64,000 nucleotides of DNA from Nitrospinaceae bacterium (GCA_965223665.1 OZ245011.1:2560001-2624000); one strand, 5' to 3'. Positions 13,676 to 52,406 are shown, numbered from the stretch's first letter. Numbers and translations are program-made. Notes: generated by a model from the letters alone, not told the origin.

Positions 13676-13720
13676 GGCACGCCTGGCAGGACTCGAACCT
13701 GCGACCTACGGATTAGAAGT
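13676..13720 (-). repeat. att site: duplicated 3' part of tRNA-Arg(UCU)
   Basis: ggcacgcctggcaggactcgaacctgcgacctacggattagaagt is identical to 52331..52375. Confidence 0.97.
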
Positions 13721-13844: not shown

Positions 13845-15098
13845 TTGGGAATGCAAAAATGTGATAAAAATGTGATAAAAGTAGACCCGCGGATGAATAA
13901 CAAATCGGTCCACTGGGTTGGGACTAAATATCCCGGGGTGCAATTCAGGGAACATGAGACTCGCAAATTTAAAAGGCGATTAGACCGCTCTATCATCATT
14001 CGCTATCGAAAACACGGAAAATTAGTGAATGAAACTGTTGGTTGGGAAACTGATGGTGCCACTTTAGAAGAAGCGGCGAAACTACGTGGACAAATCATTC
14101 AAAATATTCGCTTAGGTTCTGGATTTCAATCTTTAAAAGAAAAGCGAGAGTTGGAGCAAACCAAACGAAAGAAGAAAATCGAAGAAAAGAAATCTAAAGA
14201 AATAGAAAATATATCTTTCGAACAATTAGCTCAAAATTATCTAGACTGGGCCAGGTCCCATAAAAAAAGTTGGCGTGATGACTACTCCCGCTACCAATAT
14301 CATTTGGGTCCATCTTTAGGGAAACTAGTTGCGAAAAAGATTAAAGTTTTAGAATTAGAACGATTCAAGAAAAAATTGAATCACAAAGGTCTTGCTCCAG
14401 GAACCATTCGTCATTGTTTAGTCTTAATCCGGCAAATCTACAACCGTGCCTCGCGGATAGGATTATTTGATGGTCCAAATCCGATTAAGGAAACCTCTCA
14501 AATTGATCGCCATTTTTTAAAAACACCTGATAACCGACGCTTACGGTTTTTGAGTCGAGATGAAGCAGATTCCTTACTTACGGAACTGAAGCAAAGAAGT
14601 CCGCAAGTGTATAACATGACCTTACTTTCGTTGCATACGGGTATGCGAGCCGGTGAAATATTTGCGCTTACTTGGCAAGATATAGACTTGGCCCATAAAA
14701 TTATCACTATTCGAAATCCTAAGAACAATGAAAGTCGGCAAGCGTATATGACACCGCAGGTTTTTGAAATATTGGGGCAATTAAAAAATGCTAACTCTAA
14801 AAGACAACATCTGATCTTTAGTAATCGCAAGGGAAACCAAATTAAAGAGATTTCGAATGTGTTTTCAAAGATTGTGCAACAGCTTGGGTTAAATGACGGG
14901 GTAACAGATTTAAGAAGCAAACTGGTATTTCATTCGATCCGGCACACGTTTGCAAGCTGGTTGGCTCTTCAAGGAGAAACCTTATTAACGATAAAGGAAT
15001 TAATGGGTCATAAAGATATAAACATGACAATGCGTTATGCTCATTTAATTCCAGATCAAAAAAGAAATGCAGTAATTAAACTGGGGATAGGAGAATAG
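13845..15098 (+). CDS. int: Tyrosine recombinase / phage integrase
   Basis: Catalytic motifs HTGMRAGE (R), NPKN (K), HSIRH, LMGH, TMRY. The real start may be ATG 13893. Confidence 0.95.
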   Translation: MGMQKCDKNVIKVDPRMNNKSVHWVGTKYPGVQFREHETRKFKRRLDRSIIIRYRKHGKLVNETVGWETDGATLEEAAKLRGQIIQNIRLGSGFQSLKEKRELEQTKRKKKIEEKKSKEIENISFEQLAQNYLDWARSHKKSWRDDYSRYQYHLGPSLGKLVAKKIKVLELERFKKKLNHKGLAPGTIRHCLVLIRQIYNRASRIGLFDGPNPIKETSQIDRHFLKTPDNRRLRFLSRDEADSLLTELKQRSPQVYNMTLLSLHTGMRAGEIFALTWQDIDLAHKIITIRNPKNNESRQAYMTPQVFEILGQLKNANSKRQHLIFSNRKGNQIKEISNVFSKIVQQLGLNDGVTDLRSKLVFHSIRHTFASWLALQGETLLTIKELMGHKDINMTMRYAHLIPDQKRNAVIKLGIGE

Positions 15099-20277: not shown

Positions 20278-20280
20278 TTT

Positions 20281-23200: not shown

Positions 23201-23397
23201 GTATTACTAACCTTATTGAATGAAATATTAGTTCTATAGAATAATGGGGAGGTTAAGGATACGTTTTGAGGGGCAGCGTTTAACTTACTAGTGAAATGAG
23301 AAAAAAAAATAAAACAAATAGAAGTAATTATACTTAATATCAAATGCAATTTAGAAAGAGACCTGACAGGAAGGCCTATTTTGCATGTTTTTGACAT
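20281..23397 (-). CDS. WD40-repeat protein with C-terminal caspase-like (C14) domain
   Basis: Many GH...WD repeats; WVAWTPEGFYDAS linker; FFAGHG and IIDTCEAG His/Cys dyad; N-terminal hydrophobic segment. Confidence 0.9.
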   Translation of the reverse strand: MSKTCKIGLPVRSLSKLHLILSIITSICFIFFSHFTSKLNAAPQNVSLTSPLFYRTNISFNKVSNTKNSFEKPILEINSGGHTSIIRDAFFTKDGKSLVTISDDKTARVIDIERGITTKVFRGQIGNATEGMIYAAALSPNNNLLALGGWFHNECPGQCGNIRIIDFHTGEIIKLLKGHTNVILDLAFSNSGKFLISGGFDNIARIWNLKTGKTKHILKGHKGKVAAVAFSPDDSMVVTGSHDNTLKLWDVSSGNLISNLRGHIDFVDTVAFTPNGEYILSGSRDNSIRIWNGLTGKYLKILGVQGSDVANISISPDGKKVLTGAAGDTSINNVFEIPTGKRLSFFSKHDNITLATAISPNGKIALTGGGVNHEFYLWDISTGEVIKKLVGKGKGIFGIGISKEGKRLAWRKKRICPGKSCLKFNVPLLKSFILQEPSGDFNLGVGSLIQDDKNYFQAFKKIENWSIDTPNKNIHPTLNIYKKGVFHKRIKKDQFTGSDHRSVTITHNGKLIISGGAHGVLTSYNIENGKKVNDFIGHTSDVWALSVSPDNRWLFSGSADQTIKIWDISSGSLLLSIFHGFDDEWVAWTPEGFYDASPKGDRYVGWRVNRGYDKPADYYTASQFRRFLYRPDIIRDTLALSSSTRAIKKAGLEKISVDELIKRAPVNVKIASIQTDKSGKTDINIKLGKNKITVPERITIYVNGFQILPQEQRNLSGVNPGDTLHFQTFLPRSNNHIKVLVENLWAENGDQRWVKNNKKDKNENNEGTLHVNAIGIGQYPNLPEKQQLYSPPLDAFNMAQLFKIKGKKLFKNVVVNILTDQDGKLIKASDIDTFLLNQIQNIGPNDTTIYFFAGHGITDEKGNYHFLTADSEIKKSNSQLKVSTSGTSFDWVKLHKILDQTLGRRMVIIDTCEAGEVISENSKDLQKLAKDIHDVNSIIYTGTSRQELGLETEKGGVFTRAIIDGIKGKARFKDGKLFFTSLRNYVDKEVPKRNIEVLSAMQSRGILLKSIPNSELDSTQHPFAVIPTGMRNLVIAVK

Positions 23398-23486: not shown

Positions 23487-25670
23487 TTATTGATCACCTT
23501 GACAGGCTTGGTCTCCTTCAATACAGCCTCCGGCATCTAACTCCTCTGTTTCTTGTTCAAGTAGGACTATCATATCTGCCGGGTCAGTTTTCTCAGGTTG
23601 TCTTTCTTCACTTTTAGTTTTAGTAATTTGGCGAGTAGATTGAACCGCCTGTTCAGCGGGTTCATTAGTTGTCTGGCTGTCCACTCGGGCTTGGCATGCT
23701 GGTCCGCTGCAATTTCTACCTCCCCCTCCGGGATCCCGTTTATATCCTCTTGGTTGTCCTAAAAGCACAAGCTGACCGCCCTCTATCGAACGGTCTGGAC
23801 CCCTTGTATCCAAGGTAATATTGTCTAAAAAGGAAAGATCCCGAAATTTCCAATCTAACACTTGCCCTTCGGTAACGGAATTTTCATCTTCATCTACCAC
23901 AGTATCTAAATTTGATATTAGAATCCCAATATTCCCTCCTCTGGTTGTAATTCTATTGTTTGTTTCTTCAAATATAATTTCATTTGTTTCAAAAAGTACA
24001 GAGGGGGTTGGGTATTTCTGGTCCCCAGGCGTAATTCCTCCGTCAATACCGTCTATTAAAAATTTTTCACCATCTTTACGTAAGGTTTGTTTAAGATCCA
24101 AGATATTATCTGAAAGCCTTTCTAAAATTATTGCTTCATCTGCAATTAAATGAATGAATGTATCTTTTCCTATTCTTTCCAAGGCTTCCTCCGAAACAAC
24201 CTCTGTTCCTAGTTCCGCATTATCTCTACTGTCTGGAACCGGATCTGTTTGAAAACCACTAAGATCATTTTCGATGGATCCTCCATCAAATTCAGTTCTA
24301 CTATCTGAAAATATCGAGATTTCACCAATAGGTTTTTCCAAGAGTGGTCTTCCAAATTCCTCATCAGTGATTCTCAATATTCTTGGATCTAACAATAGAG
24401 CTCCAGCTGAGCCATTTGTAGAACCTGCATCTACAAATCCAGCAAAAGTGAGGTTTTCTTTTCCTGATACTTCTACCAATCCACCGTCGCCCGAAACTGA
24501 ACCACCTCGTGAATCAATATTTCCAAAATAACGTGTCGTTCCATCCGCCCAAAGAATGACCTTGCCACCGTCTCCGTTTTCCAAAGCAGATGCATCAATT
24601 ATTGTATTGGGCCCTACATAAGTTTGAGTAGCATTCGGTACCTCTCCCTTACCCTGGAAATCTCCTCCGACTAATGCAGTTCCTCCTCCAGATACTCCCG
24701 AAACATTTATAAATGCATATTGAAATAACCCTACCTTATCTCCCAACACATGAACCGTACCACCCATATCCCCTGATTCATTGCCAGATGCATCCAATTC
24801 GCCGGTTACAGCAGTAATTCCATTCTCTCCACCCATCAGCCAGATTTCCCCATTTTTCTCCTGGAGAGTATTTGCCCGGATTCGACCTGAATGATTCACC
24901 GTATTACGAATTACGGAACCTGCATCCAACGCTGAAAGTATTACTCTTCCACCATCTGCTTCAATTATTCCGGTATTTAATACTCTATTTTCAAGAATGT
25001 TACCTTGATCATCAAGAACATCCCCTTCCACTGCTTCAGATATTGCGAAGTTAATCAAACCATCACCCGCAAAATCAAGAGTAACCTCAGTACCTGAAGC
25101 CAAGGCCACAGACCCAAGGTTTGCCGTTATGGTCCCTTTGTTGTATACCGCCGGAGCAAGTAATCCTATTGTGGTTCCCTCAATATGCCCTTCATTAATA
25201 ATTGCAGACAAGGGATTATTTGGATCTTGAGAAAACAAATAATTTTGATTCAAAAAATCCTGGTCTGAAATATTCAATGTAGTTGCTACTAAGCCTCCGA
25301 CATTAATACGGGCATCTTGACCAAAAATAATTCCTGAGCGGTTCGTAAGAAAAACTTTTCCATTCGAGGATAAACTTCCCAAAATAGCACTGGGATTAGC
25401 CCCTACCACTCGATTGAGCGCAACAGCATTTGAATTGGGTTGAGAAAAATGAACAGACTCAGCTTTTCCAATACTGAAGGAATTCCAATTGGTTATCAGT
25501 TGTTGGGAGGATTGGTTAATCACCATACTCTTCGGATCAGGTTGGTGAATATTTCCTTGACCAGATGTGATTTGACCTCCTTGGGGAAGTGCAAAGGAAG
25601 AAAGAGGATTAGCAAAATAAAGGATAATTAGAAAGCTGAGAAAACTTTTCTTGAAAAATATTTTATTCAT
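23487..25670 (-). CDS. TpsA / filamentous haemagglutinin N-terminal (TPS) domain exoprotein
   Basis: Signal peptide then LPQGG...INQ...NWNSFSIG...LNRV.G...SNGKVFL.N..GIIFG; beta-helix G-rich repeats; GALLLDP. Confidence 0.9.
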   Translation of the reverse strand: MNKIFFKKSFLSFLIILYFANPLSSFALPQGGQITSGQGNIHQPDPKSMVINQSSQQLITNWNSFSIGKAESVHFSQPNSNAVALNRVVGANPSAILGSLSSNGKVFLTNRSGIIFGQDARINVGGLVATTLNISDQDFLNQNYLFSQDPNNPLSAIINEGHIEGTTIGLLAPAVYNKGTITANLGSVALASGTEVTLDFAGDGLINFAISEAVEGDVLDDQGNILENRVLNTGIIEADGGRVILSALDAGSVIRNTVNHSGRIRANTLQEKNGEIWLMGGENGITAVTGELDASGNESGDMGGTVHVLGDKVGLFQYAFINVSGVSGGGTALVGGDFQGKGEVPNATQTYVGPNTIIDASALENGDGGKVILWADGTTRYFGNIDSRGGSVSGDGGLVEVSGKENLTFAGFVDAGSTNGSAGALLLDPRILRITDEEFGRPLLEKPIGEISIFSDSRTEFDGGSIENDLSGFQTDPVPDSRDNAELGTEVVSEEALERIGKDTFIHLIADEAIILERLSDNILDLKQTLRKDGEKFLIDGIDGGITPGDQKYPTPSVLFETNEIIFEETNNRITTRGGNIGILISNLDTVVDEDENSVTEGQVLDWKFRDLSFLDNITLDTRGPDRSIEGGQLVLLGQPRGYKRDPGGGGRNCSGPACQARVDSQTTNEPAEQAVQSTRQITKTKSEERQPEKTDPADMIVLLEQETEELDAGGCIEGDQACQGDQ

Positions 25671-25713
25671 GACTCCCCCAAGTATAAAAATATCAAAAAA
25701 ATATCCTTTGAAA

Positions 25714-27477
25714 TTAAAAAGTCAAAATTCCATTTACAAGCCAAGTATGATCACTCCCATCAGAGGGCCTTGGTCCTGACAGAGGCTTACTGTAACTTAC
25801 GGCAAATGAAAAAGCCGGGATCCAAAACTCAGCTTTTAATTTTGGAATATTGATTTGCAAACCAAACCCATATCCAGAGATATATTCATCATTAGATTCC
25901 CCCGGCAAAGCATCAATAACAAAAACACCCCCGTAATCAATAAATCCAATAAAAGAAAAAATATCCTTTAATGACAAACCATTGATGCCCAAAGGTATAT
26001 CTACAGGGAACGGTAAAACATATTCAGCAGAAACTGCAAATCCATGGTCTCCTGAAAACTCTGCCAAGGGATACCCTCGAACTGTACCTACACCCCCAAT
26101 GGCAAATAAGTCCGGGGCCAGAACCCTAGAGCTTGCTATTTGCCCTGACCCTTTTAATATGAAATAACTATTTAATACATTTATATTTTGATACCGAGTT
26201 ATTACTGCATACCCAATGGTCGCATCATCATTTCCTCCTCGGTCTAAAGGAAGAAGATTACTCTCGTCAAAAACCGTTTGCTGACCTCTTAAATCAAAAA
26301 ACGTCCACCCTAAAAAATTATCTCGTATATTTCCCCTAATCGCTATAAAAGCATCCCCAATATCATCATCACTGGTTTTGATAGTATCAAACTGGAAGTT
26401 ATTATAAATTCTGTATTCAAATCCTCCGAATAAACCAATTTGAATTGATCGAGATCTGAATACAGGGATTCCCAATTCAATGTTAAATAAATTTGCATCC
26501 CCTCCTCCTCTTAATGCCGAAAGAGATTGTCCCAGTGTAAAATCTGAATAAGTGTAAGAAAACTTTAAAGAAAACCCGAGGCTATTAAAAAAATATAAAT
26601 AAGAGGCATTGATATAATTTAAATCCTCGTCGGTTTTGATTCCTCTAAAATAAATTTGATCTCCAAGACTCAAAAGGTTCGCAACTAAAGCCGACACACC
26701 AAATCTGTTTCCGCCTGTAAAACGGGATCCAAAATTATCACCGTCAATAGAAATAGAATAATTTTGGGTTTCAGTAATTTGAAGGACCAGATCGGAAGTG
26801 CCTGGAAGTTCTCCTGGACGTAAAGTGGATCGAACAGTAACGCCCATAAGATCATTTAATTGCAAAAGCAAACTTTCAAGATTTTGTTCCCTTAAAGGAG
26901 CTCCTCCCGTAAGTTTTTTTAGTCGGGCTCTGATATCATTAGAATCAATCTTGTTGTTACCCAATATTTCAATTTGATCTACCCTACCTTCTGCAATTAT
27001 AATTTTTACTAGACCATCTAATATTTTCTGTTGTGGAATATAGGCTTCAGATAGAATAAAACCTTCTTCACCATAGAAAGAAGTTATCTTATTCGCAATT
27101 TGATTCAATTCCTCTACAGTCATTTTCTTATTTGGAGAAACTTCTATAATCTCAGATAATTTTTGGTCACTAAAAACCGTATTGCCTTCAAAAATAATTT
27201 GTTTTACCAATACCGATGGACCTTTTAACCTTTCCGGTGCTTTGACTTTTGGTCCTTTCGTACCTGTATCCGGTATTGAAATTTCTGGTTGTTTTTTTTC
27301 GGGAGGTCGAACCGTGGGTTGAGATTTTCGAAGGGATCTATCAATAACACCTGATTTACCAGCATCAGGAACTTGGGAAAGGGAAAAGTCTACAAAACCT
27401 AGAATTATTACAAAAGAAAGAAAAAACCCAACAAAAACAGGTCGAACAGTTAGAATTAGCATAGTGAAGATCACCAA
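25714..27477 (-). CDS. TpsB (ShlB/FhaC/HecB family) transporter
   Basis: POTRA (FEGNTVFS...YGEEGFILSEAYIPQQ...EG), DNFGSRFTG, GG..TVRGY motif, C-terminal Phe. Confidence 0.92.
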   Translation of the reverse strand: MVIFTMLILTVRPVFVGFFLSFVIILGFVDFSLSQVPDAGKSGVIDRSLRKSQPTVRPPEKKQPEISIPDTGTKGPKVKAPERLKGPSVLVKQIIFEGNTVFSDQKLSEIIEVSPNKKMTVEELNQIANKITSFYGEEGFILSEAYIPQQKILDGLVKIIIAEGRVDQIEILGNNKIDSNDIRARLKKLTGGAPLREQNLESLLLQLNDLMGVTVRSTLRPGELPGTSDLVLQITETQNYSISIDGDNFGSRFTGGNRFGVSALVANLLSLGDQIYFRGIKTDEDLNYINASYLYFFNSLGFSLKFSYTYSDFTLGQSLSALRGGGDANLFNIELGIPVFRSRSIQIGLFGGFEYRIYNNFQFDTIKTSDDDIGDAFIAIRGNIRDNFLGWTFFDLRGQQTVFDESNLLPLDRGGNDDATIGYAVITRYQNINVLNSYFILKGSGQIASSRVLAPDLFAIGGVGTVRGYPLAEFSGDHGFAVSAEYVLPFPVDIPLGINGLSLKDIFSFIGFIDYGGVFVIDALPGESNDEYISGYGFGLQINIPKLKAEFWIPAFSFAVSYSKPLSGPRPSDGSDHTWLVNGILTF

Positions 27478-27773: not shown

Positions 27774-28817
27774 TTAAGGAACGGTTTCGAATCTCCAGCT
27801 ACTTTTATAAAATTCAACGGGTTGTGACGAATCAGAACCAAGCAGTTTAACACCACGAGAAACCAGTTTGTCATATTTGACTTTTGTTCCTTTGAATTGA
27901 TTTAATCCAGAACCTATTGGAATTAAATCTGTCGTCCCTAATTGAGTTTCACTGGCAAATACGGTTACCGTGTCAATTCCAAAAGGTGGAGAAGATTCTA
28001 TTTCAAACTTATCTCCCTTGAGTTTGTCGGGTATCTCGTAAATCTGCCCTCTCTTAAAAAAATTATTGGTTCTTGCCTTATTAGGAAGCAGTTGAATAAC
28101 ATTACCATCTAAATCTGTATCAATTATATTTGCGAAAAAATCATGATTGCCCTGTAAATAAATAATTATCTTCTCCCCTTCTTTATATTGTTTCTTTTCG
28201 GTCCATACCCTCACGGTGAGAGGAGACCCCTTTTCTTTTAATAAATTTGATAAACTTTTGGGTTGAAAAGTCTGCACTTTTTTAACATTTGAACCAACTT
28301 TTCCTTTATCAAATTGCTCCTGATTATTGGCAAGATAGTTTTTCTCGGAAGCATTAATTTTAGAACTGGAGTTTGAGAGTTCAAGAATATATTCAATTTT
28401 TGCATTTATTCGGACATGGTATTTTGAGGTCTTTTTATCAAAACCATCATCAATCCGCTCTAATAAAGTTACATAGTTTCCATCTTTATTTTTGACAAGG
28501 TGAAAATCAAAGTATTTATTTTTTAATTTTGTCTTTGACATGATTATATTCTTTGAATTCTCAACAGCTTTAAGTTTAGCATCTTGTAATGCCTTTTCCC
28601 TAGCTACTTCCAAAGATTCATTTGGGCCTACATAATAATAACCATTGCTTTGCCGAATTACTGAGCGGGTTTCTTCCTGTGGGACAATTTCTAATCCACG
28701 AAATTGCTGTGACGATGCATTAGATGCGTTAACCATGCAAAGAATATAAATAGCAATCATAAATTTGCCCATAGCTAACAAAAAATGATTTTGAAACATG
28801 TTTTCCTCAATATTCAT
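27774..28817 (-). CDS. Exported DUF4384-domain protein
   Basis: VWTEKKQYKEGEKI...DG.VIQLLPN...YEIP....FEI..PFG.D.V.VFAS; N-terminal AREKALQDAK.KAVE (LPP20/FlgT-N-like helix). Confidence 0.75.
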   Translation of the reverse strand: MNIEENMFQNHFLLAMGKFMIAIYILCMVNASNASSQQFRGLEIVPQEETRSVIRQSNGYYYVGPNESLEVAREKALQDAKLKAVENSKNIIMSKTKLKNKYFDFHLVKNKDGNYVTLLERIDDGFDKKTSKYHVRINAKIEYILELSNSSSKINASEKNYLANNQEQFDKGKVGSNVKKVQTFQPKSLSNLLKEKGSPLTVRVWTEKKQYKEGEKIIIYLQGNHDFFANIIDTDLDGNVIQLLPNKARTNNFFKRGQIYEIPDKLKGDKFEIESSPPFGIDTVTVFASETQLGTTDLIPIGSGLNQFKGTKVKYDKLVSRGVKLLGSDSSQPVEFYKSSWRFETVP

Positions 28818-29014
28818 AACAACCTCTAAATGAAAAAAATCTTATCGAGAAAGTTTAAACTAAAATGAATTTTTATCTGTTTCAGGAAGGAAAAACGAGT
28901 GAAAAAAATATTTAAATAAAAGAAAGTATTAAATTTCTTTTCCCAATTTTAAAAATAAACAAATTTTAAAATGAAACTTTCCAAAATAAAATAATTTGGG
29001 GATCTGGAATTTCT

Positions 29015-29758
29015 TTAGTTTTCCTGGGCAACCGAAAAATCATCCTCTTGAGCTCCCTGCCCCTCTACTTCAAGGACCCCCTCTTCACCAATCACCTTTT
29101 CTCCCAGCATGTTTGAGACCTCAGAAATATTAAGTGACATTTTTACATATGCATCACCAGATTCATTCCAGCCAAAGTCAGAAACATCTGCTAAATAACA
29201 CGTCGCAAGAACTTTTACTTTCACCTCATCTGAGGTCAGAATGTAATTATTAATAGTAGTATGGCTTTCCAGAGTGAATCCCACAATCCGCTTAGCCAAC
29301 TGTTTATAAGCATCTACTTCTGCAGCACGCAACGCTTTTAAAGGCCCTGCCAATGAAGGGGTAGATGTTGAAAAAGCAACTCGTTTAAAAACTTTATTAC
29401 CCAAATTTACCGTCTTACCATCTATATTAGTAATGCTTTCAAGTCTTACGGAGGCAGTGACTTTCGCCAAATCCTTTTCAGGATCATATAAAACCTCCTC
29501 AAATTTGATCCCCTTCATAAACGCTTTTGCTTTTGTCTCTGTTTTGCCAACAAATTTTGCTGCAACCATATTTTCCACCTCTTCGGTACTTCGTACTTTC
29601 ATGCCATAAACTGATTCGATTAAACCTCTTTCAGCTAAAACTTTTGCAGCCGTTATAGTCATAATTCTTTTATTTCCAGCACTAGCGCTAACCACGGAAA
29701 TTAAAAAGACAACAGCAAGCAAAATAAAAAAGCTAATGGTTTTATTAATTCTTACCAT
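29015..29758 (-). CDS. Exported protein with two LPP20/FlgP-like domains
   Basis: Signal peptide; internal duplication AAKVLAERGLIESVYG.KV.S...V.N / AAEVDAYKQLAKRIVG..L.S...I.N. Confidence 0.7.
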   Translation of the reverse strand: MVRINKTISFFILLAVVFLISVVSASAGNKRIMTITAAKVLAERGLIESVYGMKVRSTEEVENMVAAKFVGKTETKAKAFMKGIKFEEVLYDPEKDLAKVTASVRLESITNIDGKTVNLGNKVFKRVAFSTSTPSLAGPLKALRAAEVDAYKQLAKRIVGFTLESHTTINNYILTSDEVKVKVLATCYLADVSDFGWNESGDAYVKMSLNISEVSNMLGEKVIGEEGVLEVEGQGAQEDDFSVAQEN

Positions 29759-30083
29759 CCGCCTCTCCTTCTAAAGATGGTTGGTCTTTATGTTTTTTAT
29801 TTAACTGAATTTTCCCCTCCTTTATAAGAGAAGATTTTTTGTCATAGGTCTTAAATAAAATCTTGGTAGTTTTTCTCTCATTAATAAATACTTTTGCTTC
29901 AACGCGTCCATTTTTAGGTAAATCCGGCAAAGAGCCAACAACACTTTTATTCAATTGATCCATCTGGTCAATTCTCTTTTCTATAAGCTCAGAATTCCCC
30001 CCCCATGCAAGCCCTACGAAAAATATACAAAGAATTTTTATAAAAAATAAAATATTCAAACATATGATCTTAGAATTCTTCAT
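29745..30083 (-). CDS. Small exported hypothetical protein (112 aa)
   Basis: ATG 30083 (MKNSKII...) followed by a hydrophobic signal; overlaps both neighbours by 14 bp. Confidence 0.6.
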   Translation of the reverse strand: MKNSKIICLNILFFIKILCIFFVGLAWGGNSELIEKRIDQMDQLNKSVVGSLPDLPKNGRVEAKVFINERKTTKILFKTYDKKSSLIKEGKIQLNKKHKDQPSLEGEADGKN

Positions 30084-31491
30084 CACTAAGGATCCTTCCA
30101 ATTCCTGGAACACTTTTCTTTTGAGAATTAGGTTGCTTTTCTTTTTCTGGGGGATTGGAAGCTTGAGCATTGTGGCTTTGGACTGGCGCAGGATTCGATT
30201 GCACCCCTTCTGAATCCAAAATTTCTGGGGTTTCCTCTTTAGCAACTTCCGTAACAACACTCTTAGGAGCTTCTTCTAAATTATTTTGATTAATCTTGGT
30301 CAAAATCATTCGCCGCCCTAACGATTCTTTGTTAATGGGTATAGAAAAATAAATTTTTTTAAATAATTCTACATTTACTTTAGTGTTAGAAACCCCAAAA
30401 CTAGAGTCCACTTCTTTCAAAGCAGAAATCGTTGCCGGATCCAATGTACCATTTAAAGTAACATCATAACCGTATAAAAATAGCCATTCCTGAATTTTTA
30501 AAATAACTTCTGACTCGTTTAATGAAAAATAATAATTCTCTATCCCATCCACCACAACTATTCCAGGTTTAGCATCATCACCTAGAAGTCTCCAGTAAGG
30601 TAGGATAAAGTACTTTCCAATTATCTGAATCATACTCATTTCAACAAGAAGTCGGATTGCCGCATGCCTTCCCTGGACTTTTTTACTTGTTCCCTTAAGA
30701 CCGAAGTTAATTCCAAATAGACCAATCCCAAGCTCTTTACCTGCCACGGCCTTATGAACCTCCATGGTGGTAACCGTATTATTTCTTTGAATACCAACCA
30801 TAGTTTCAAAATTTAACAAATTGAAGTCCAGGGTTATACGAGCAAGCCCTTGCTTATTTCCAATACCACCTCTCAAAGACAAATCACCAGAAGACAAAAT
30901 ACTTGTTGGAGAACCCGGTATGGAAGCAGACCCATCAATATCCGTATTTTCTCCCTTTGTACTCAACCCTCTATCAAATTCTGTGATTCCACCACTTAAA
31001 ACCACCTCTGGGATAATTTTTTTCTCAAACCTTGAATATTCAGTATTTATCTGATTGGCCATAAAGTTTGGGTCGTATGGTATATATAATACGTTTCCAC
31101 CAATCGAGTTGAGCGAACTTTTAATCATTTCCGTAATATCTCTTGGTATTTCTCCTCCTGTCGAACCAGAGGTCCCGGTCAAATCGCTAATAGGTTTGCT
31201 TAGAATTTTCAAAATTGCCGTATCATAAATTTCGGTCATTAAACCTAAATCTCTTAATGCCTTTGTAAATGTAGTGGTTTTTACAGCGGGGGGAGTCGCT
31301 TTTAATTTTGCATCAACTTTTCTTGGGTCATTCGCGCAAGAAGAAACCAGGAAAAAAATAAGTAAGAAGGCCAACAAATAACTTGTCTGAAATATAAAAG
31401 ATTTACTTTTTAATCTATCTTCAAACATTGAAACCTTTGCATTTAAGAATATTTTTCTAAATAAGTAAATTATCCAAACTTCATCTATCAC
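30070..31491 (-). CDS. CsgG/HfaB-like outer-membrane lipoprotein with C-terminal peptidoglycan-binding-like domain
   Basis: Lipobox LVSS-C; ISDLTG...EIP; LSGGITEFD; ITLDFNL; AAIRLLVE; IQEWL...GY....NG.LD..T..ALK. Probable start ATG 31428. Confidence 0.7.
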   Translation of the reverse strand: MIDEVWIIYLFRKIFLNAKVSMFEDRLKSKSFIFQTSYLLAFLLIFFLVSSCANDPRKVDAKLKATPPAVKTTTFTKALRDLGLMTEIYDTAILKILSKPISDLTGTSGSTGGEIPRDITEMIKSSLNSIGGNVLYIPYDPNFMANQINTEYSRFEKKIIPEVVLSGGITEFDRGLSTKGENTDIDGSASIPGSPTSILSSGDLSLRGGIGNKQGLARITLDFNLLNFETMVGIQRNNTVTTMEVHKAVAGKELGIGLFGINFGLKGTSKKVQGRHAAIRLLVEMSMIQIIGKYFILPYWRLLGDDAKPGIVVVDGIENYYFSLNESEVILKIQEWLFLYGYDVTLNGTLDPATISALKEVDSSFGVSNTKVNVELFKKIYFSIPINKESLGRRMILTKINQNNLEEAPKSVVTEVAKEETPEILDSEGVQSNPAPVQSHNAQASNPPEKEKQPNSQKKSVPGIGRILSDEEF

Positions 31492-31735
31492 GCGAACAAT
31501 TGAAACTCAAGAAAATACAAATTCAATAGTTTTAAATCTAACCGGAAAAAAAATTCAGTTTTGGGGTAGGAGGTGACTAAACTCAGAAAAACCTTAAAGA
31601 GAAGATGGAGAAAAATTATCATACTAACCCTTCGCATAGAAAAATTTCCCTTGAGAGACAGTGACAGCTTTAAAGTACAAATCGATTTAGCAAAACAAAT
31701 AAACCTTTTGGGAAACTTACGAAATAGTATAAAAA

Positions 31736-32068
31736 TTACTTTTTGTCTGAAACAATATTAATTACTTCTTTTACATTTGATCCCGGTCCAATTACAATAC
31801 TGTTTTCATTATTGTCACCGTTATTGCACTTCGAGTTTTTTGAACAATTCTTAGCTTTGGATTTTGCTTTAACAATAATATAACTTATATTAGTATCGGT
31901 TTTACCTGCTTTGTCATTTTTGGCAATGCTATCATCAGTATATTTAGAAATACCATCGTCTAAATCTCCTCCTGCCATACTATTATCTAGAGGAAATGCC
32001 ACTAAGAAAATTAATTGAACTAGCAAAATAAATAATCTCGTGCTCATAATTATCTCTCCATATGTCAA
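31736..32068 (-). CDS. Small secreted protein with a partial repeat-like C-terminus
   Basis: Signal peptide (start likely ATG 32047, GGAGA RBS); C-terminal NENSIVIGPGSNVKEVINI; one Cys pair. Confidence 0.7.
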   Translation of the reverse strand: MTYGEIIMSTRLFILLVQLIFLVAFPLDNSMAGGDLDDGISKYTDDSIAKNDKAGKTDTNISYIIVKAKSKAKNCSKNSKCNNGDNNENSIVIGPGSNVKEVINIVSDKK

Positions 32069-32203
32069 ATAAACCAGGGAATCTTTTTATTGGCCGAAAG
32101 CTAAGTTTATAGATTGATATACGTTTCCCACCTTTAAAATCTTTAAAAAATCCAATATCAAATCCCTACTCATACCTTTAAATTTTTCCAAAAATTGGAA
32201 CAC

Positions 32204-32240
32204 GCTAAAAGGAAACCTCATTTTGGGGTTTCCTTTTAGC
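32204..32240 (-). terminator. Stem-loop downstream of the 164-aa repeat protein
   Basis: gctaaaaggaaacc-N9-ggtttccttttagc, 14-bp perfect inverted repeat. Confidence 0.7.
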
Positions 32241-32302
32241 TTTTAAAGATAAAGAACAAAAACAATTAATTTTAAAAAAAATATAAGTCAATATTTACTG
32301 TT

Positions 32303-32797
32303 TTATTCCATAGTCACAGAACCTACGCTTGCTTCGCTCCCTTGACCAATTGCTATATTGGCTGATTCTTTTACATCAGACTTATTAATTACTCTACCCT
32401 TAACGGAAGAATTTTTCATGGTAACGCTCCCCATGTTTGCTGTTGCATTTTTTCCGACCGCAATGTTGGCTGATTTATCTACATTAGATCTATTAATTAC
32501 TTTTCCTTTTACAGAAGAGTCTTCTAAGGTGACGCTACCCATGTTTGCTTTGGCATTTTTTCCAATTGCCATATTAGCTGATTTCTTAACATTGGATTTA
32601 TTGATTACTTTCCCTTTTACATTAGAGTTTTTTAGAGATATACCACCCATTCGAGCCTTTGCATTTTTCCCTACAGCTATGTTAGTCGATTTTTTTACTT
32701 TTGATTTGTTTAATAGCTTTCCTTTAACTTCTGAATCCGCATAGGCAGTTGAAATACCAAAAAGACAAAATATTAAAATTATTGTAAAATTTTTCAT
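32303..32797 (-). CDS. Secreted protein of exactly four 36-aa repeats (candidate amyloid/beta-solenoid subunit)
   Basis: 20-aa signal (..TAYA) + 4 x 36 aa, consensus [DN]S.VKGKVINKS.VK.SANIA[VI]GKNA.ANMGSVT[ML]. Confidence 0.85.
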   Translation of the reverse strand: MKNFTIILIFCLFGISTAYADSEVKGKLLNKSKVKKSTNIAVGKNAKARMGGISLKNSNVKGKVINKSNVKKSANMAIGKNAKANMGSVTLEDSSVKGKVINRSNVDKSANIAVGKNATANMGSVTMKNSSVKGRVINKSDVKESANIAIGQGSEASVGSVTME

Positions 32798-33009
32798 TTG
32801 AGTCCCCCTATTAAAAATTAGACATATAAAGTTGGATTACATTAAACTTCGCCATTTTTAAATTAAAACTAATATCCCTCTTTAAATAAAAAAGAACCAT
32901 AAGGAATCTAAAAATTTATTTTTCTATTTATAAAAGCTTGCCCATATCATTCAGAAATTATTAAAATTACCAAATGCAAGTCAGAAAAATCAGAAGATTC
33001 CTCAAAACG

Positions 33010-35058
33010 CTATTTAAAAACAATGGAATTTTTGTTGGAAGTTTTTCCTCCCACGGCAATATTGGTATTTTGACCAAAACTAAATAGAGATAAGTCCACA
33101 TCATTTATAATCAAACCAGATCCAGAAGAAGTACCAACGTTCCCACCTACATTGCGGTTTTTTATAACTACAGAACCTGAGTTTGCCTCACTGCCAGATC
33201 CTGCCGCTACATTTGTTACTAACGCGCCTTTTGCTCTATTAAAGATGTCGCCATCGAAGCTTCCATTTTCAAGAACCACAGACCCAAGGTTTGCTTTTGT
33301 ATTTCTACCAACAGCAATATTGGTTGCTATTCCTGCCCCTACGTTATTTACAATATTACCTTTCATAGAACTATTTTTCATACTTACAGAAGCTGTATTC
33401 GCCTCAGAATTACTTCCAACAGCAGCATTTGTTATTATTCCACCAACCGCGGTATTAGTGACACTTCCTTTTTTACTGCTGTTCTCCATATTTACGGAAC
33501 CTGTATTCGCCTTGCTATTACTTCCGATGGCAGCGTTTGTGATTATTCCTCCTGCAGCAGTATTCACTGTCGTGCCGGAGTTTTTGCTGTTCTCCATATT
33601 TACGGAACCTGTATTCGCCTTGCTATTACTTCCGATGGCAGCGTTTGTGATTATTCCTCCTGCAGCAGTATTCACTGTCGTGCCGGAGTTTTTACTGTTC
33701 TCCATATTCATGGAACCTGTATTCGCCTTGCTATTACTTCCGATGGCAGCGTTTGTGATTATTCCTCCTGCAGCAGTATTCACTGTCGTGCCGGAGTTTT
33801 TACTGTTCTCCATATTCATGGAACCTGTATTCGCCTTGCTATTACTTCCGATGGCAGCGTTTGTGATTATTCCTCCTGCAGCAGTATTCACTGTCGTGCC
33901 GGAGTTTTTGCTGTTCTCCATATTTACGGAACCTGTATTCGCCTTGCTATTACTTCCGATGGCAGCGTTTGTGATTATTCCTCCTGCAGCAGTATTCACT
34001 GTCGTGCCGGAGTTTTTACTGTTCTCCATATTCATGGAACCTGTATTCGCCTTGCTATTACTTCCGATGGCAGCGTTTGTTAAAGTCTGACCTGCGGCAG
34101 TATTTATGGAAGTACCGGAGTTTTTGCTGTTCTCCATATTCTTGGAACCTGTATTCGCCTTGCTATTACTTCCGATGGCAGCGTTTGTTAAAGTCTGACC
34201 TGCGGCAGTATTTATGGAAGTACCGGAGTTTTTGCTGTTCTCCATATTTACGGAACCTGTATTCGCCTTGCTATTACTTCCGATGGCAGCGTTTGTTAAA
34301 ATCTGACCTGCGGCAGTATTTATGGAAGTACCGGAGTTTTTGCTGTTCTCCATATTCTTGGAACCTGTATTCGCCTTGCTATTACTTCCGATGGCAGCGT
34401 TTGTTAAAGTCTGACCTGCGGCAGTATTTATGGAAGTACCGGAGTTTTTGCTGTTCTCCATATTCTTGGAACCTGTATTCGCCTTGCTATTACTTCCGAT
34501 GGCAGCGTTTGTTAAAGTCTGACCTGCGGCAGTATTTATGGAAGTACCGGAGTTTTTGCTGTTCTCCAAATCTAGGGAAGCTGTATTTGCTTTACTTTTA
34601 TTTCCTATAGCAATATTTGAAAGCATTTTCGAACTTGAGTTATTAACAACATCTCCTTTAACCTTACTTCCCGTCAGATTTACCGAATTTAAATTTGCTT
34701 TATTTTTGCTTCCAATCGCCAAGTTAACCTTATTCTTTCCTGTCGAAAAATTCAAAAGATTTCCATCTACTTCGCTTTTCTTTGAGCTTACAGAACCAAA
34801 GTTAGATTCATTATTCTTTCCAACAGCCAAATTGGCATTATTACTGCTCGAATCCTTATTAAGAATAAGTCCACTAGCCTTAGTATCCTTTAAATTTATC
34901 GACCCAAGGTTTGCTTTATTTTCTTTTCCAACAGAGATATTTGCAGAGTTTCTGGTTTTATTTAAGTTTATTACGGAACTTTTTACTTCCGATTCCGAAA
35001 AAACTAAAGAGGGATAAATAAATAAAAAGCCTACTATCCAAATAATTTTTTTGTTCAT
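33010..35058 (-). CDS. Secreted N/S/G/T/A-rich protein with about 17-18 36-aa repeats (candidate amyloid/beta-solenoid subunit)
   Basis: Signal peptide; repeat ENSKNSGT..NTAAG...TNAAIGSNSKANTGS.NM, homologous to the repeat of 32303..32797. Confidence 0.85.
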   Translation of the reverse strand: MNKKIIWIVGFLFIYPSLVFSESEVKSSVINLNKTRNSANISVGKENKANLGSINLKDTKASGLILNKDSSSNNANLAVGKNNESNFGSVSSKKSEVDGNLLNFSTGKNKVNLAIGSKNKANLNSVNLTGSKVKGDVVNNSSSKMLSNIAIGNKSKANTASLDLENSKNSGTSINTAAGQTLTNAAIGSNSKANTGSKNMENSKNSGTSINTAAGQTLTNAAIGSNSKANTGSKNMENSKNSGTSINTAAGQILTNAAIGSNSKANTGSVNMENSKNSGTSINTAAGQTLTNAAIGSNSKANTGSKNMENSKNSGTSINTAAGQTLTNAAIGSNSKANTGSMNMENSKNSGTTVNTAAGGIITNAAIGSNSKANTGSVNMENSKNSGTTVNTAAGGIITNAAIGSNSKANTGSMNMENSKNSGTTVNTAAGGIITNAAIGSNSKANTGSMNMENSKNSGTTVNTAAGGIITNAAIGSNSKANTGSVNMENSKNSGTTVNTAAGGIITNAAIGSNSKANTGSVNMENSSKKGSVTNTAVGGIITNAAVGSNSEANTASVSMKNSSMKGNIVNNVGAGIATNIAVGRNTKANLGSVVLENGSFDGDIFNRAKGALVTNVAAGSGSEANSGSVVIKNRNVGGNVGTSSGSGLIINDVDLSLFSFGQNTNIAVGGKTSNKNSIVFK
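33470..34568. repeat. 108-bp tandem repeat, 10 near-identical units in two blocks of five
   Basis: gttctcca recurs at 33481, 33589 ... 34021 ... 34561. Confidence 0.95.
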
Positions 35059-35840: not shown

Positions 35841-36260
35841 ATGTTAAATTTTTTAATAGTTAAAAGCAGAATTAAGCTGTTTATTTTCCTTATTTTGTTA
35901 ACACCAAATGCTGTTTTACTCTGTTTAGTCCACCCTGCCATGGCTAAAAATATTTTGGTCAATCCTCCTTTTTCAGGTTCAAAATATGAGGTAGAAGCAG
36001 TAGAAGCTAATGCTTTTTCTTCAGGTCAGGTAATAGTCAATGGTAGAGTAAAAAATACCGATTTAATGCCTGTAAAAGGCTACGTGGTAATTTATTTTTT
36101 AGGTGAAGGAGAAGACTTATTACAAATCCGTGAAACAGAAGTTAATAACAAGAAAGAAATTGGTCCTGGATTGACTGGGAATTTTAAAATTATTACTCAA
36201 ATAGAAAACCAAAAAAACTTAAAGAGAGTTTATGTCGAATTTTTTAAATTACCACCTTAA
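35841..36260 (+). CDS. Small exported Ig-like (FxLYD-like) protein
   Basis: Signal segment; VNGRVKNT...V.IYF.......L......I.PG..G.F pattern. Confidence 0.5.
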   Translation: MLNFLIVKSRIKLFIFLILLTPNAVLLCLVHPAMAKNILVNPPFSGSKYEVEAVEANAFSSGQVIVNGRVKNTDLMPVKGYVVIYFLGEGEDLLQIRETEVNNKKEIGPGLTGNFKIITQIENQKNLKRVYVEFFKLPP

Positions 36261-36594: not shown

Positions 36595-37758
36595 ATGCAA
36601 TTAATAAAAATGCCTATATATAAAAACGTAGCGCGACTTTTAATTTATTTTGCCTTAACATCGATATTCTATTCCTTTCACATGGCTGAGGGATTTGAAC
36701 AAAACACACCTCCCCTTAGGAAAAATGTTGAGTTGATACTAAAGTCAATTCACCATCAAAATCAACTTGAAGGAAAAAAAGTTACAGCTTTTTATATTTA
36801 TGAAAGAAACTCTAAAAAATCTTGCTCTCTCTCTAATACTCTGACAGATATAATTCAAGATGTTCTTCATAGCGTTAGAGAGTATGTTAAATTCACTATC
36901 CTTACCCGGGATGAAATTGATATTATTGAGCAAGAAACTTTAATAAAGGCCGGTGGTGGTATCGATTCGGAAGATACCTCCTACGATCCAATTTCTCTTC
37001 TAGGTTCGGCAGATGTGATAATTTCCGCGACTTATCAAAATTTTAACAATAATTCTTTTAACGTTGCACTAAAAGCCATAAAAATAGAGGAAAATGGAGC
37101 AAAACAATTAGCATTTAAGAAAGTGCTGTTAAAAAAAAATGGCTTGAGTAATGAGGATCTAAAATGTCTTACATCAACCGGAAAAAGCAATGACTCTACA
37201 GATATTTCCGCAAAGTTTACTTTTTTAAATGATAATAACTTACGATTGGAGTCGGGGGCAAGGGTCACAAAAGGGGAGCGTTACCATATTTTACTTGAAG
37301 TAACTCAAACCTCTTGGGTCTATACTTTTGGTATTGATGGGAGTTCAATATTATCGCCAATTTTCCCACATTATAAAATAATTTATAGCAATCCCCTTAA
37401 ACCAGGAAAAACCTATCAACTTCCGGGCTCGGGACAACAATATCGTTTTGATGACACAAAAGGGGAAGAGACATTTTATACATTGATTTCAAATAAACCT
37501 CTAGACCGCCTGGAAAAGTTGCTCACTCTTGCTTCTAAGGAAAAAGTAACAATCACCAAAAAAGAATTGTTTGGGAAACATATGGTACAAAGTTTAGATT
37601 ATTCTGTATCAGAGGCAAGGAAAGAATTGCATAAATATGGGCGGGGGATAATTATTGAAAATATTGATACCAACAATAATAAAGCTAATAATGTATTTGA
37701 ACACTTGGAGTCAGATACTGGTTTAATCATCAGGAAATTAGAGTTTGATCACTATTAA
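36595..37758 (+). CDS. Exported protein, N-terminal FlgO/CsgG-like alpha/beta domain + DUF4384
   Basis: FTILTRDEIDIIEQE...LLGSADVIISATY; GERY.I......WVY.F.IDG....PIFP...YQLP....Y.FD.TKGEETFY...S. Confidence 0.7.
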   Translation: MQLIKMPIYKNVARLLIYFALTSIFYSFHMAEGFEQNTPPLRKNVELILKSIHHQNQLEGKKVTAFYIYERNSKKSCSLSNTLTDIIQDVLHSVREYVKFTILTRDEIDIIEQETLIKAGGGIDSEDTSYDPISLLGSADVIISATYQNFNNNSFNVALKAIKIEENGAKQLAFKKVLLKKNGLSNEDLKCLTSTGKSNDSTDISAKFTFLNDNNLRLESGARVTKGERYHILLEVTQTSWVYTFGIDGSSILSPIFPHYKIIYSNPLKPGKTYQLPGSGQQYRFDDTKGEETFYTLISNKPLDRLEKLLTLASKEKVTITKKELFGKHMVQSLDYSVSEARKELHKYGRGIIIENIDTNNNKANNVFEHLESDTGLIIRKLEFDHY

Positions 37759-37902: not shown

Positions 37903-39051
37903 ATGAGAACTCTAGGATTATTATTCTTTTCGATGTTTTTTGTTTCAACATTGAACATTTCCACGGCGAAAGCCCAAAATAAAGAATGGATCACGATTGA
38001 AGGAATTGCTCCACTTGGCCCAGACTCTGAGAATTTGGCATTAAGAGATGCAATGCGAAAAGCAATTCAGCAAGTTCTTGGTGTAATGGTTGAGTCGCAA
38101 ACATTGGTAGAAAACTTCCAAGTAATATCCGATAAAATACTCACAGCCAGCCAAGGTTATGTTTCAGATTATAAAATAGTTTCTAGCGGACTTGAACCAT
38201 CTAAAGAAGTATATAAAGTAATTATACAAGCAAAAGTAAAGCGCAAAGCTATCTTAGATGATATCAGAGGATTAAAAATATTTATCAATACTAAACTAGA
38301 TAATAAGCATCTGATGATTATTTATCATAAAAGATCTAATGGGTTGGACCGCAAAAATAAGGCTGTAAAAAGTGCTCAAAATTCCATTCGAAACTATTTT
38401 TTAAAAAAACAGTTTCGTGTTTTCAACGAGGATGCAGTAACCCCAATATACGAAAAAATTAAAGAATTAGGCGAGGACTTTTCAGATAAAAAATTAAACC
38501 AATTGGCCATTAATCAGGATGCTGAATTATTAATAAAATTCAGCCTAAGTAGTAGAACAAAACCTGGCCCAACTTTTTCAATTGTTATTGCAACAGTAAC
38601 AACAAAAGTTTTTAATCCTTCAACTGGAAAAATACTTGGTTCTTCAGAAAAAAGCACAAAACAAATTTATCCATCTAACAATAATTTAGCATTTGAGGAA
38701 GCTCTAATAAAAGCTTCAGTTCAAGCAGCTAAGTCGACATCATCCTCAATTGTAGAAATGATACTAACTAATTTATCTATTTCGGATACAAAAGAATTCC
38801 TAATTATTTTTAAAAATTTTGAAGAAAAAGAGATGGACCAAATTTATTCACTTGTAAAATCGATTGGCTTTCGAAAATTTCGAGAACTAAGGTTTGAGCC
38901 TTATTTTTTAGAATTGGAAATATTCGAAGACATTGAAAGCACATCAAACATCAGACGAATTTTAAAAAATGCTCTAGAAAATAAAGGGCTTTTACTAGAA
39001 ACCCTAGAAACATCTGGAAACCGTATTATTTTTAAACGAAAAAAAAGCTGA
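37903..39051 (+). CDS. Exported FlgT N-terminal-like domain protein
   Basis: Signal; ITIEG.A......ALRDAMRKAIQQVLGVMVESQTLVENF....DKI.T.SQGYV.DYKI...V.I.AKV. Confidence 0.7.
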   Translation: MRTLGLLFFSMFFVSTLNISTAKAQNKEWITIEGIAPLGPDSENLALRDAMRKAIQQVLGVMVESQTLVENFQVISDKILTASQGYVSDYKIVSSGLEPSKEVYKVIIQAKVKRKAILDDIRGLKIFINTKLDNKHLMIIYHKRSNGLDRKNKAVKSAQNSIRNYFLKKQFRVFNEDAVTPIYEKIKELGEDFSDKKLNQLAINQDAELLIKFSLSSRTKPGPTFSIVIATVTTKVFNPSTGKILGSSEKSTKQIYPSNNNLAFEEALIKASVQAAKSTSSSIVEMILTNLSISDTKEFLIIFKNFEEKEMDQIYSLVKSIGFRKFRELRFEPYFLELEIFEDIESTSNIRRILKNALENKGLLLETLETSGNRIIFKRKKS

Positions 39052-41230: not shown

Positions 41231-41643
41231 TGGCCGATCAAATCTCACCCGAGCACAGAAGTTGGAACATGTCCCGAATCAGGGGCAAAGATACAAAACC
41301 CGAAAAGATTGTACGCTCAATACTTCATAAATCGGGTTACCGTTTCAGACTCCACCGTAAAGACCTTCCAGGAAAACCTGACATTGTTCTTCCCAAATAC
41401 AACACAATAATATTTGTCCATGGCTGTTTCTGGCACCGTCACAAGAACTGTCGTTTTGCTTATACTCCCAAATCCAGAAAGGAGTTCTGGAATGCAAAGT
41501 TCAGAGATAACAAAAGAAGAGACAAAAAGAACCAAAAAAAATTGAAAAATCTTAATTGGAGGGTAATCACAATCTGGGAATGCCAAACCCGAAATCTTGA
41601 ACTAATCAGGAAAATAATTAAAAAAAACCTAGAAGGCACCTAA
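41230..41643 (+). CDS. vsr: Very-short-patch repair endonuclease
   Basis: RSWNMSRIRGKDTKPE, LPGKPD, FVHGCFWH.H, IWEC; TAATG coupling with the methyltransferase. Confidence 0.96.
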   Translation: MADQISPEHRSWNMSRIRGKDTKPEKIVRSILHKSGYRFRLHRKDLPGKPDIVLPKYNTIIFVHGCFWHRHKNCRFAYTPKSRKEFWNAKFRDNKRRDKKNQKKLKNLNWRVITIWECQTRNLELIRKIIKKNLEGT

Positions 41644-48926: not shown

Positions 48927-48975
48927 TTGTTCTGTTTTTCCTGAAAATCAGTATTTCGCTGGCAAGAAATAATTA

Positions 48976-52329: not shown

Positions 52330-52406
<77 letters not shown>

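Follow-up and report, generated by a model that had tools for sequence, protein, structure and literature searches.

A candidate curli-like export and assembly system with 36-residue repeat subunits, carried on an integrative island in a Nitrospinaceae bacterium

The window analyzed here is a 64,000-nucleotide stretch of DNA from a Nitrospinaceae bacterium (GCA_965223665.1 OZ245011.1:2560001-2624000), within which an initial annotation, made from the sequence alone, had described a cluster of seven co-oriented genes and proposed that they encode a new kind of functional-amyloid secretion system, one that pairs secreted proteins built of 36-amino-acid (36-aa) repeats with a CsgG-like lipoprotein. 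In line with that description, our open reading frame (ORF) listing contained every gene named beforehand, as seven co-oriented minus-strand ORFs between positions 27774 and 35058. These genes, and three plus-strand genes that lie beyond them, are as follows.

33010..35058, minus strand: long repeat subunit, 682 aa; signal peptide, 17 repeats of 36 aa and a conserved 49-aa C-terminal module
32303..32797, minus strand: short repeat-only subunit, 164 aa; signal peptide and 4 x 36 aa
31736..32047, minus strand: small exported protein sm110; DLDDGIS motif and a repeat-like C-terminal N.NS[VI]V strand; candidate adaptor or nucleator
30070..31428, minus strand: putative outer-membrane channel lipoprotein, 452 aa; CsgG-fold domain, peptidoglycan (PG)-binding-like helical domain, disordered linker and conserved C-terminus
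29745..30083, minus strand: small exported protein sm113, 112 aa; variable accessory
29015..29758, minus strand: exported LPP20-family protein p247, 247 aa; assigned via its homologues
27774..28817, minus strand: exported DUF4384 protein, 347 aa; PF14326; loose accessory
35841..36260, plus strand: divergent small exported protein p139; recurrent accessory
36595..37758, plus strand: second DUF4384 protein; PF14326, E 2.8e-8
37903..39051, plus strand: exported protein p382; LPP20/FlgT_N-like N-terminus; recurrent accessory

The likely start of sm110 is the ATG at 32047, which gives a protein of 103 aa (the bound of the longer ORF is at 32068). The true start of the lipoprotein is the ATG at 31428, and its residues are numbered below according to a 453-aa translation that begins one codon before this ATG. 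The channel and sm113 genes overlap by 14 nucleotides (nt), as do the sm113 and p247 genes. A scan for promoters and terminators returned fewer sites than were found in shuffled sequence and was therefore uninformative.

The long repeat protein consists of a 21-aa signal peptide, 17 in-register 36-aa repeats that run from residue 22 to residue 633 without an insertion or deletion, and a 49-aa nonrepeat tail, in agreement with the 17 to 18 repeats estimated beforehand. In the short protein, a 20-aa signal peptide is followed by exactly four repeats, as had been claimed. The periodicity is equally apparent in the DNA of the long-repeat gene, in which Tandem Repeats Finder reported 10.5 copies of a 108-nt unit at 94% match between 33477 and 34612. 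Both mature repeat proteins are devoid of Pro, Trp, Tyr, Cys, and His, our counts being zero for each, as the initial annotation had stated, and both are basic, with an isoelectric point (pI) of 10.0 and a net charge of +28 for the long protein and a pI of 10.4 and a net charge of +18 for the short one. The conserved Asn columns noted earlier are invariant among 11 aligned homologues, as are Gly and Ala columns of the repeat. The repeat proteins matched no known family in Pfam or NCBIfam, where Ice_binding, YadA_head, and similar hits were at chance level (E > 0.01). Curlin models in the same two databases gave no match, and hhalign of a profile made from 11 repeat-protein sequences (profile A2) against Escherichia coli CsgA returned a probability of 0.4%. 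None of these comparisons, therefore, placed the repeats in a known nonfiber family. Relatives of the repeat proteins were nonetheless found: a word-indexed search recovered 14, nine of which are only 92 to 104 aa long and comprise a signal peptide and two repeats and nothing more, and profile A2, run against 1.84 billion cluster representatives, recovered 255 proteins at E <= 1e-3, of which 99 reached E <= 1e-10 and 15 reached E <= 1e-30. Judged by these searches, the repeat proteins form a real family without a name.

The properties of this family were examined in 85 repeat ORFs, 63 of them complete, from the related metagenome loci described below. The best self-match period was 36 or 72 in 68 of the 85 and 37, 38, 74, or 76 in the other 17. 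Their pooled composition was dominated by Asn (14.3%), Ala (13.3%), Gly (13.0%), Val (11.2%), Ser (9.9%), and Lys (8.6%), with Phe, Pro, His, and Tyr each at 0.3% or less and Cys and Trp at 0.0%. Two subunit classes could be distinguished. Members of the first consist of repeats only and end at a repeat boundary (..ANMGSVxx[EKQ]), and among the 63 complete ORFs their lengths cluster at values corresponding to a signal peptide plus n x 36 (93, 131, 166, about 201, 236, 272, 309, and 381 aa). Members of the second, long class are mostly 600 to 1125 aa and end in a conserved module, ..SG.GL[VI]IND...P.G...NTN[IV]A.GG.TSNKNS[IV]V.K, found in 15 distinct sequences (eight of which make up alignment A6); the module of the long protein in the window ends ..TSNKNSIVFK.

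AlphaFold2 modeling of the short subunit with profile A2 as the alignment gave a best model that is all beta, with a predicted local distance difference test (pLDDT) score of 87.5 and a predicted template modeling (pTM) score of 0.75. In this model, a pattern of four strands (14, 5, 3, and 5 residues) recurs in each 36-aa unit, and strands span residues 22 to 163 of 164, beginning just past the signal peptide and leaving no capping element, so that the monomer is predicted to be the uncapped beta-solenoid that had been expected. Foldseek returned weak solenoid matches for this model, headed by FapC (E 1.4e-3, template modeling [TM] score 0.11) and followed by pentapeptide-repeat proteins, with the CsgA fibril at rank 16. 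The best VIA match among 48,161 chains was the beta-helix of SRRP (Z 6.7), and others were the CsgA fibril (Z 6.1), Vag8 (Z 6.1), and UpaB (Z 5.3). Every fold match is a beta-solenoid or a beta-helix, and because all the matches are weak, we take the model to represent a generic open beta-solenoid without a specific solved relative.

The leading structural matches, SRRP (6.7), Vag8 (6.1), and UpaB (5.3), are monomeric beta-helix adhesins and autotransporter passengers, and this raises the alternative that the repeat proteins are exported by the CsgG-like lipoprotein but serve as nonamyloid beta-helical adhesins or as a surface coat, in the form of monomers or lateral arrays. The 600 to 1125 aa of the long class would suffice for a stalk, and the basic character of the family (pI above 8 in 90% of the 63 complete members) would suit binding to anionic surfaces. 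Many members, however, have a signal peptide and two repeats (about 72 mature residues) and neither a cap nor an anchor, which is not enough to make a helix stable as a monomer, and the predicted interface between subunits continues the solenoid in register. We therefore consider the adhesin alternative unlikely, if worth bearing in mind.

That interface was seen when three copies of the mature short subunit were modeled together. The interaction prediction score from aligned errors (ipSAE) was 0.84, 0.88, and 0.88 in three runs, compared with 0.00 for the best of three controls; the runs shared at least 95% of their contacts, and partner pLDDT was at least 91. Of 30 proteins solved as pairs, 20 attained the ipSAE mark, as did 1 of 23 that had been solved as single chains; these counts apply only roughly to the trimer because the calibration used two copies and the tool's own alignments. 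Residues 127 to 164 (repeat 4) of one copy contact residues 21 to 58 (repeat 1) of the following copy, and the most confident pairs (138/30, 147/39, 157/49, and 159/51) are all offset by exactly 108 residues, or 3 x 36. The trimer interface is thus predicted to be an in-register, head-to-tail continuation of the solenoid from subunit to subunit, as the proposal of stacked oligomers had anticipated, and the modeling supports polymerization of the short subunit.

The lipoprotein carries a lipobox (VSSC), and all 30 aligned channel sequences share its Cys, C32. There were 781 relatives among 8000 candidates scored, the best 120 of which are 47 to 66% identical to it and bear the source labels Thermodesulfobacteriota, Desulfuromonas, Desulfobacula, Nitrospirota, Nitrospinota, Sulfurospirillaceae, and Pseudomonadota. 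One of these 120 has a precomputed match to the Pfam CsgG family (PF03783). When 30 aligned homologues were scanned, subthreshold Pfam CsgG matches appeared in 16 (best E 0.0014), PG_binding_1 in 12, PG_binding_3 in 5, and weak NCBIfam HfaB matches in 11 (best E 5.2e-4). A sequence search of the PDB with the lipoprotein profile gave 0 matches.

In CsgG, each protomer contributes two amphipathic beta-hairpins to a transmembrane barrel, and the protein assembles into a nonameric pore with a constriction loop. The top Foldseek matches of the AlphaFold2 model of the lipoprotein are CsgG chains (E 2e-5, probability 1.00). In VIA, CsgG (6l7a_A) ranks first of 995 chains, with Z 14.4 and a root mean square deviation of 7.4 A over 194 of 246 residues aligned, and CsgG fills seven of the top nine rows; the next are XCC0632/DUF330 (Z 12.6, 143 residues aligned) and FlgT (Z 11.9, 145 residues aligned), and families that share only the core fold, namely PelC, LptE, and TolB-N, score Z 8 to 11 over 106 to 140 residues. 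Hydrophobicity alternates from column to column at 163-171, 184-190, and 234-243, the positions of the two membrane hairpins of CsgG, the segment 156-194 being modeled with a pLDDT below 50. The loop that hhalign pairs with the CsgG constriction is Gly/Ser/Thr rich, TGTSGSTGGEIPRD, and almost invariant. According to the models, then, the lipoprotein has a CsgG fold, and the description of it as CsgG-like holds at the level of the fold but not at that of the Pfam family, which the protein itself does not match. Beyond the CsgG-like domain come a confidently modeled helical domain (291-386), a linker modeled as disordered, and, at the C-terminus, the conserved sequence GIGRILSDEE[FW], of which the ..ILSDEE[FW] part could be a ligand for PDZ or TPR domains.

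An alternative for the lipoprotein is that it makes no pore at all but is a periplasmic, PG-tethered ring or scaffold comparable to PelC, FlgT, and LpoB, with the repeat proteins and the LPP20/FlgT_N-like proteins building a periplasmic or inner-leaflet structure. PelC, FlgT, LptE, and TolB-N have the same core fold (Z 8 to 12), the lipoprotein carries a PG-binding-like domain, its partners are LPP20/FlgT_N-like ring-type proteins, and the hairpin region was modeled with low confidence. Nevertheless, CsgG is the top match and gives the longest alignment (194 residues, against 106 to 148 in the other families), the amphipathic alternation falls at the hairpin positions of CsgG, and the conserved core of the locus encodes no additional outer-membrane barrel, TpsB being found at 0 of 80 related loci. 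A similar comparison can be made with PelC, FlgT, LpoB, and GNA1162/DUF799 as systems: they resemble the locus described here in their alpha/beta core fold (Z 8 to 12) and in having LPP20/FlgT_N-like partners, whereas they are without repeat-only secreted subunits, and the alignments with them span the core fold only. Overall, a scaffold without a pore seems quite improbable to us.

Of the smaller proteins, sm110 has 575 relatives at E <= 1e-5, with no name or Pfam match among the 120 listed and no named family in the Atlas, and neither it nor sm113 gave anything meaningful in Pfam and NCBIfam scans. The DLDDGIS motif of sm110 lies just past the signal peptide and is invariant, and its C-terminal segment reads ..N.NS[VI]V.G.G..V.GD[IV].. 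(alignment A3). A role as adaptor or nucleator is tentatively proposed for sm110 because this C-terminus resembles a strand of the repeat; hhalign paired the segment weakly with the repeat junction (probability 16%, E 0.0016, 20 columns) and with the beginning of the tail of the long class (probability 6%). The claim that the cluster has no recognizable CsgE or CsgF was borne out, hhalign probabilities for sm110 and sm113 against the E. coli proteins being 0.1 to 5%, with single-sequence templates that leave room for very distant kinship.

The p247 protein of the window has no Pfam match, but LPP20 (PF02169) was detected in 12 of 13 aligned homologues that are 48 to 66% identical (best E 2.2e-9), with an Atlas cluster score of 0.97. 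The match is limited to the C-terminal half of the homologues, about residues 133 to 207, so that the LPP20 part of the earlier description can be retained provisionally, through these homologues, and the tandem part is not borne out. The mature forms of sm113 and p247 both open, straight after the signal peptide, with an A-G-N-K motif, of which G and N are invariant in sm113 and N is invariant, and G nearly so, in p247. This could be a common processing or docking motif of the two proteins.

The assignment of the 27774..28817 product to DUF4384 is secure, PF14326 scoring 74.1 bits (E 9.5e-21), with a second copy at 34.2 bits, against a cut-off of 27. The gene is a loose accessory outside the core, and in 3 of 80 related loci (L078, L079, and L097) the channel ORF carries a fused DUF4384 domain. 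Homologues of p139 and p382 occur in 17 and 13 of the 80 loci, respectively; p382 matches LPP20 at E 0.036, and one of its homologues matches FlgT_N at 1.7e-7.

The linkage of these genes was assessed in a metagenome scan with the channel alignment, in which 263 relatives were confirmed, 80 loci were kept, and six-frame ORFs were searched with phmmer and hmmsearch. Dereplication at 90% or higher channel identity reduced the 80 loci to 59 clusters, with channel identities down to 41%, and the dereplicated counts come from single-sequence phmmer. The recurrent gene order is a long repeat protein (not always present), a repeat protein, sm110, the channel, sm113 (in some loci), and p247. A repeat gene lies within 2.5 kb upstream of the channel gene in 51 of the 53 loci that have at least 1 kb of upstream DNA (42 of 44 after dereplication); the two without one are L075 and L098, and L098 carries a repeat gene downstream. 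Among assessable loci, sm110 directly precedes the channel in 68 of 70 (52 of 55 dereplicated), p247 is downstream in 49 of 53 (37 of 42 dereplicated), and sm113 is downstream in 43 of 58. The genes for the repeat protein, sm110, the channel, and the LPP20 protein are therefore linked almost without exception. Consecutive locus tags for sm110 and the channel were also found in three metagenome-assembled genomes (RBR22_09400/09405, J7K75_10770/10775, and A2X84_02545/02550).

The same association is seen in genomes. The genome from which the window derives has a single channel gene, and its repeats are confined to this locus. A search of genome contigs with one protein as the query found one locus. 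Within the phylum of this bacterium, 1 of 120 genomes (this one) has the repeats and 2 of 120 have the channel, the second match being weak (E 3.9e-15), so that repeats and channel occur together in this genome alone. In a second phylum, that of locus L001, 401 genomes were searched; six have the channel and five have the repeats. These five all belong to the six with a channel, and in each of them the two genes are neighbors; the remaining channel match is a truncated 219-aa frame. The co-occurrence of repeat and channel, suggested as a check when the locus was first described, is thus confirmed both by neighborhood and by genome content.

The genes might still be neighbors by chance or through packaging in an island, and not one system, since here they share a mosaic island with unrelated cargo (see below). 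We regard this as most improbable: the order is kept in 59 dereplicated channel clusters with channels down to 41% identical, co-occurrence is perfect among the 401 genomes of the second phylum, and at two junctions the end of one gene overlaps the start of the next by 14 nt. Some neighbors recur elsewhere and are absent from the window, namely a DUF2807/GIN-domain protein (31 loci), a trypsin-PDZ protease (13 loci), FGE-sulfatase-like proteins (7 loci), and canonical CsgG lipoproteins (two clusters of 4 loci each).

The annotation had further described the system as mobile, and in this genome it did arrive on a 38.6-kb island inserted in a tRNA-Arg gene. The features that delimit the island are the following.

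52330..52406, minus strand: tRNA-Arg(TCT), the integration site; holds a copy of the 45-nt repeat at 52331-52375
13676..13720, strand not applicable: distal attachment (att) repeat; exactly reproduces 45 nt from the 3' part of the tRNA-Arg gene
13845..15098, plus strand: tyrosine integrase beside the distal repeat; PF00589, E 3.9e-33

In a genome of the same genus (G018), the left flank corresponds to C13:3126837-3129414 and the right flank to 3131642-3134306, a spacing of 2.2 kb compared with 39 kb here; the island is missing at that site. The integrase gene, the 45-bp direct repeat of the tRNA gene, and this empty site together show that the cluster rides on an integrative island. Guanine-plus-cytosine (GC) content was rejected as an island marker (0.366 for the island, 0.383 for the genome). 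Other cargo of the island is listed here.

16502-17596: DnaA_N-domain protein
39644-41643: Dcm methylase and Vsr
41727-50184: DUF6339, DUF4420, Z1, and AspBHI/Mrr-like restriction genes

The island also encodes a fusion of a caspase (Peptidase_C14) with an FGE-sulfatase and a 1038-aa WD40 protein (18583-23397) and, directly downstream of the cluster, a two-partner secretion pair on the minus strand (23487-27477) with a TPS domain in TpsA (E 7.1e-34) and a TpsB of the ShlB/FhaC type. As a candidate for an alternative exporter, this pair was dismissed because it is present at 0 of 80 related loci. In a genome of the same family (G019), a 44-nt part of the 3' end of tRNA-Arg occurs at about ten sites of contig C1 with 91 to 98% identity; some of the copies are clustered, for example at 1533632 and 1534743, and four lie within 3422646-3429932, which suggests repeated or tandem island integrations there. 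Outside the island, a minus-strand group at 52552-58337 (multiheme c-type cytochrome, DUF4399 protein, hybrid histidine kinase, and MtrB/PioB-type porin, E 1e-102) looks like an extracellular electron-transfer module. The opposite flank has a higher GC content (0.47) and holds two very large minus-strand ORFs (3-12942), one of 2288 aa that runs off the window and one of 1928 aa with domains of the HYR, CBM96, Metallophos, and disaggregatase-repeat types; G018 holds at least three paralogues of the latter ORF, at 81 to 83% DNA identity.

Curli of E. coli and the locus described here have several features in common: a CsgG-fold lipoprotein is encoded beside Sec-exported, Cys-free, Asn/Gly/Ser/Ala-rich, repeat-only subunits, the subunits are predicted to form an open-ended, polymerizing beta-solenoid, and the subunits fall into two classes, of which one may serve as anchor or nucleator. 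The differences are equally clear. The repeat is 36 aa here and about 20 in curli, and curlin models and hhalign against CsgA fail to detect it; the subunits here are basic and without aromatic residues, whereas those of curli are acidic; no homologue of CsgE, CsgF, or CsgC is detectable, the helpers being sm110, sm113, and the LPP20-family protein; and the channel, which falls below the Pfam CsgG threshold, has gained a PG-binding-like domain and an acidic-aromatic C-terminus. With the Fap system of Pseudomonas the locus shares a similar repeat length, and FapC nominally heads the Foldseek list for the subunit model, but this match has a TM score of 0.11 and the exporter has a CsgG fold and is not a barrel of the FapF type; no Fap family was found in Pfam or NCBIfam scans of the cluster. 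In Caulobacter, a lipoprotein of the HfaB type reportedly exports small, multimerizing, amyloid-like holdfast anchor proteins (PMC6707917). The HfaA/HfaB/HfaD system resembles the present one in its CsgG/HfaB-type lipoprotein, as reflected in the weak HfaB matches among the 30 channel homologues, but the lipoprotein of the window scores 14.8 bits against an HfaB cut-off of 300 and no holdfast polysaccharide locus is present here. No match to HfaA or HfaD was reported in the cluster scans.

Each check suggested in the initial annotation that lends itself to computation agreed with its interpretation. We suggest that the cluster probably encodes a type VIII-like (curli-like) machinery for secretion and assembly, which would build an extracellular beta-solenoid fiber from 36-residue rungs. 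Cys- and aromatic-free subunits would be exported unfolded by Sec and, we infer, would cross the outer membrane, still unfolded, through an oligomer of the PG-tethered CsgG-fold lipoprotein, to polymerize end to end outside the cell by nucleation-precipitation as in curli. The tail module of the long subunit, together with sm110, may anchor or nucleate the fiber, as CsgB and CsgF do in curli, and the LPP20-family protein and sm113 may be periplasmic or outer-membrane helpers.

Several observations weigh against this proposal. With regard to the channel, the lipoprotein has no Pfam match, CsgG included, even at E <= 10; its score with the NCBIfam HfaB model (NF037935), with an E value of 0.012, is far from the cut-off given above; and the hhalign alignment with CsgG of E. 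coli, although colinear over 182 columns, is a weak one (probability 15.5%, E 0.0017). The AlphaFold2 model from which its fold is read is mediocre (pLDDT 66.9, pTM 0.59), with pLDDT below 50 at 33-52, 156-194, and 387-445, the second of these being the presumed first hairpin. With regard to the subunits, one of the five models of the short protein is confident and the other four are poor (pLDDT 33 to 54), and none of the 48,161 chains compared by VIA exceeds Z 6.7. Because structure predictors readily stack open solenoids, the trimer speaks for compatibility with polymerization and not for assembly. Lastly, the nucleator role proposed for sm110 is read from a weak, 20-column hhalign match.

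A more specific version of the proposal can be put forward tentatively, with somewhat less than even confidence. The cluster may represent a branch of type VIII secretion that has not been described before and that moves horizontally, scattered over anaerobic and sediment lineages, in which a cationic, aromatic-free functional amyloid made of quantized 36-residue rungs is combined with sm110 as nucleator or adaptor, an anchor subunit bearing the C-terminal module, and a PG-tethered CsgG-like pore.

To our knowledge, curli and Fap are the only well-characterized dedicated amyloid export systems of Gram-negative bacteria. We found no account of the present system in the full-text literature, although the supplementary operon lists of curli and Fap surveys could in principle hold such loci. 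Two large surveys of curli and Fap reportedly relied on curlin or Fap signatures (PMC12822426 and PMC10192328). The operon is widely conserved and apparently undescribed.

If the proposal is correct, a third amyloid export system, with unrelated subunits and helpers but a CsgG-fold pore, would help to tell which properties are indispensable to type VIII secretion. It would also bear on how beta-solenoid fibers can be assembled without Gln or aromatic ladders and on how matrix systems spread via integrative islands. Subunits of two to four repeats are very small and Cys free and are therefore easily tested, with potential as engineered fibers, and a CsgG-fold pore with a different constriction loop would be of interest as a nanopore.

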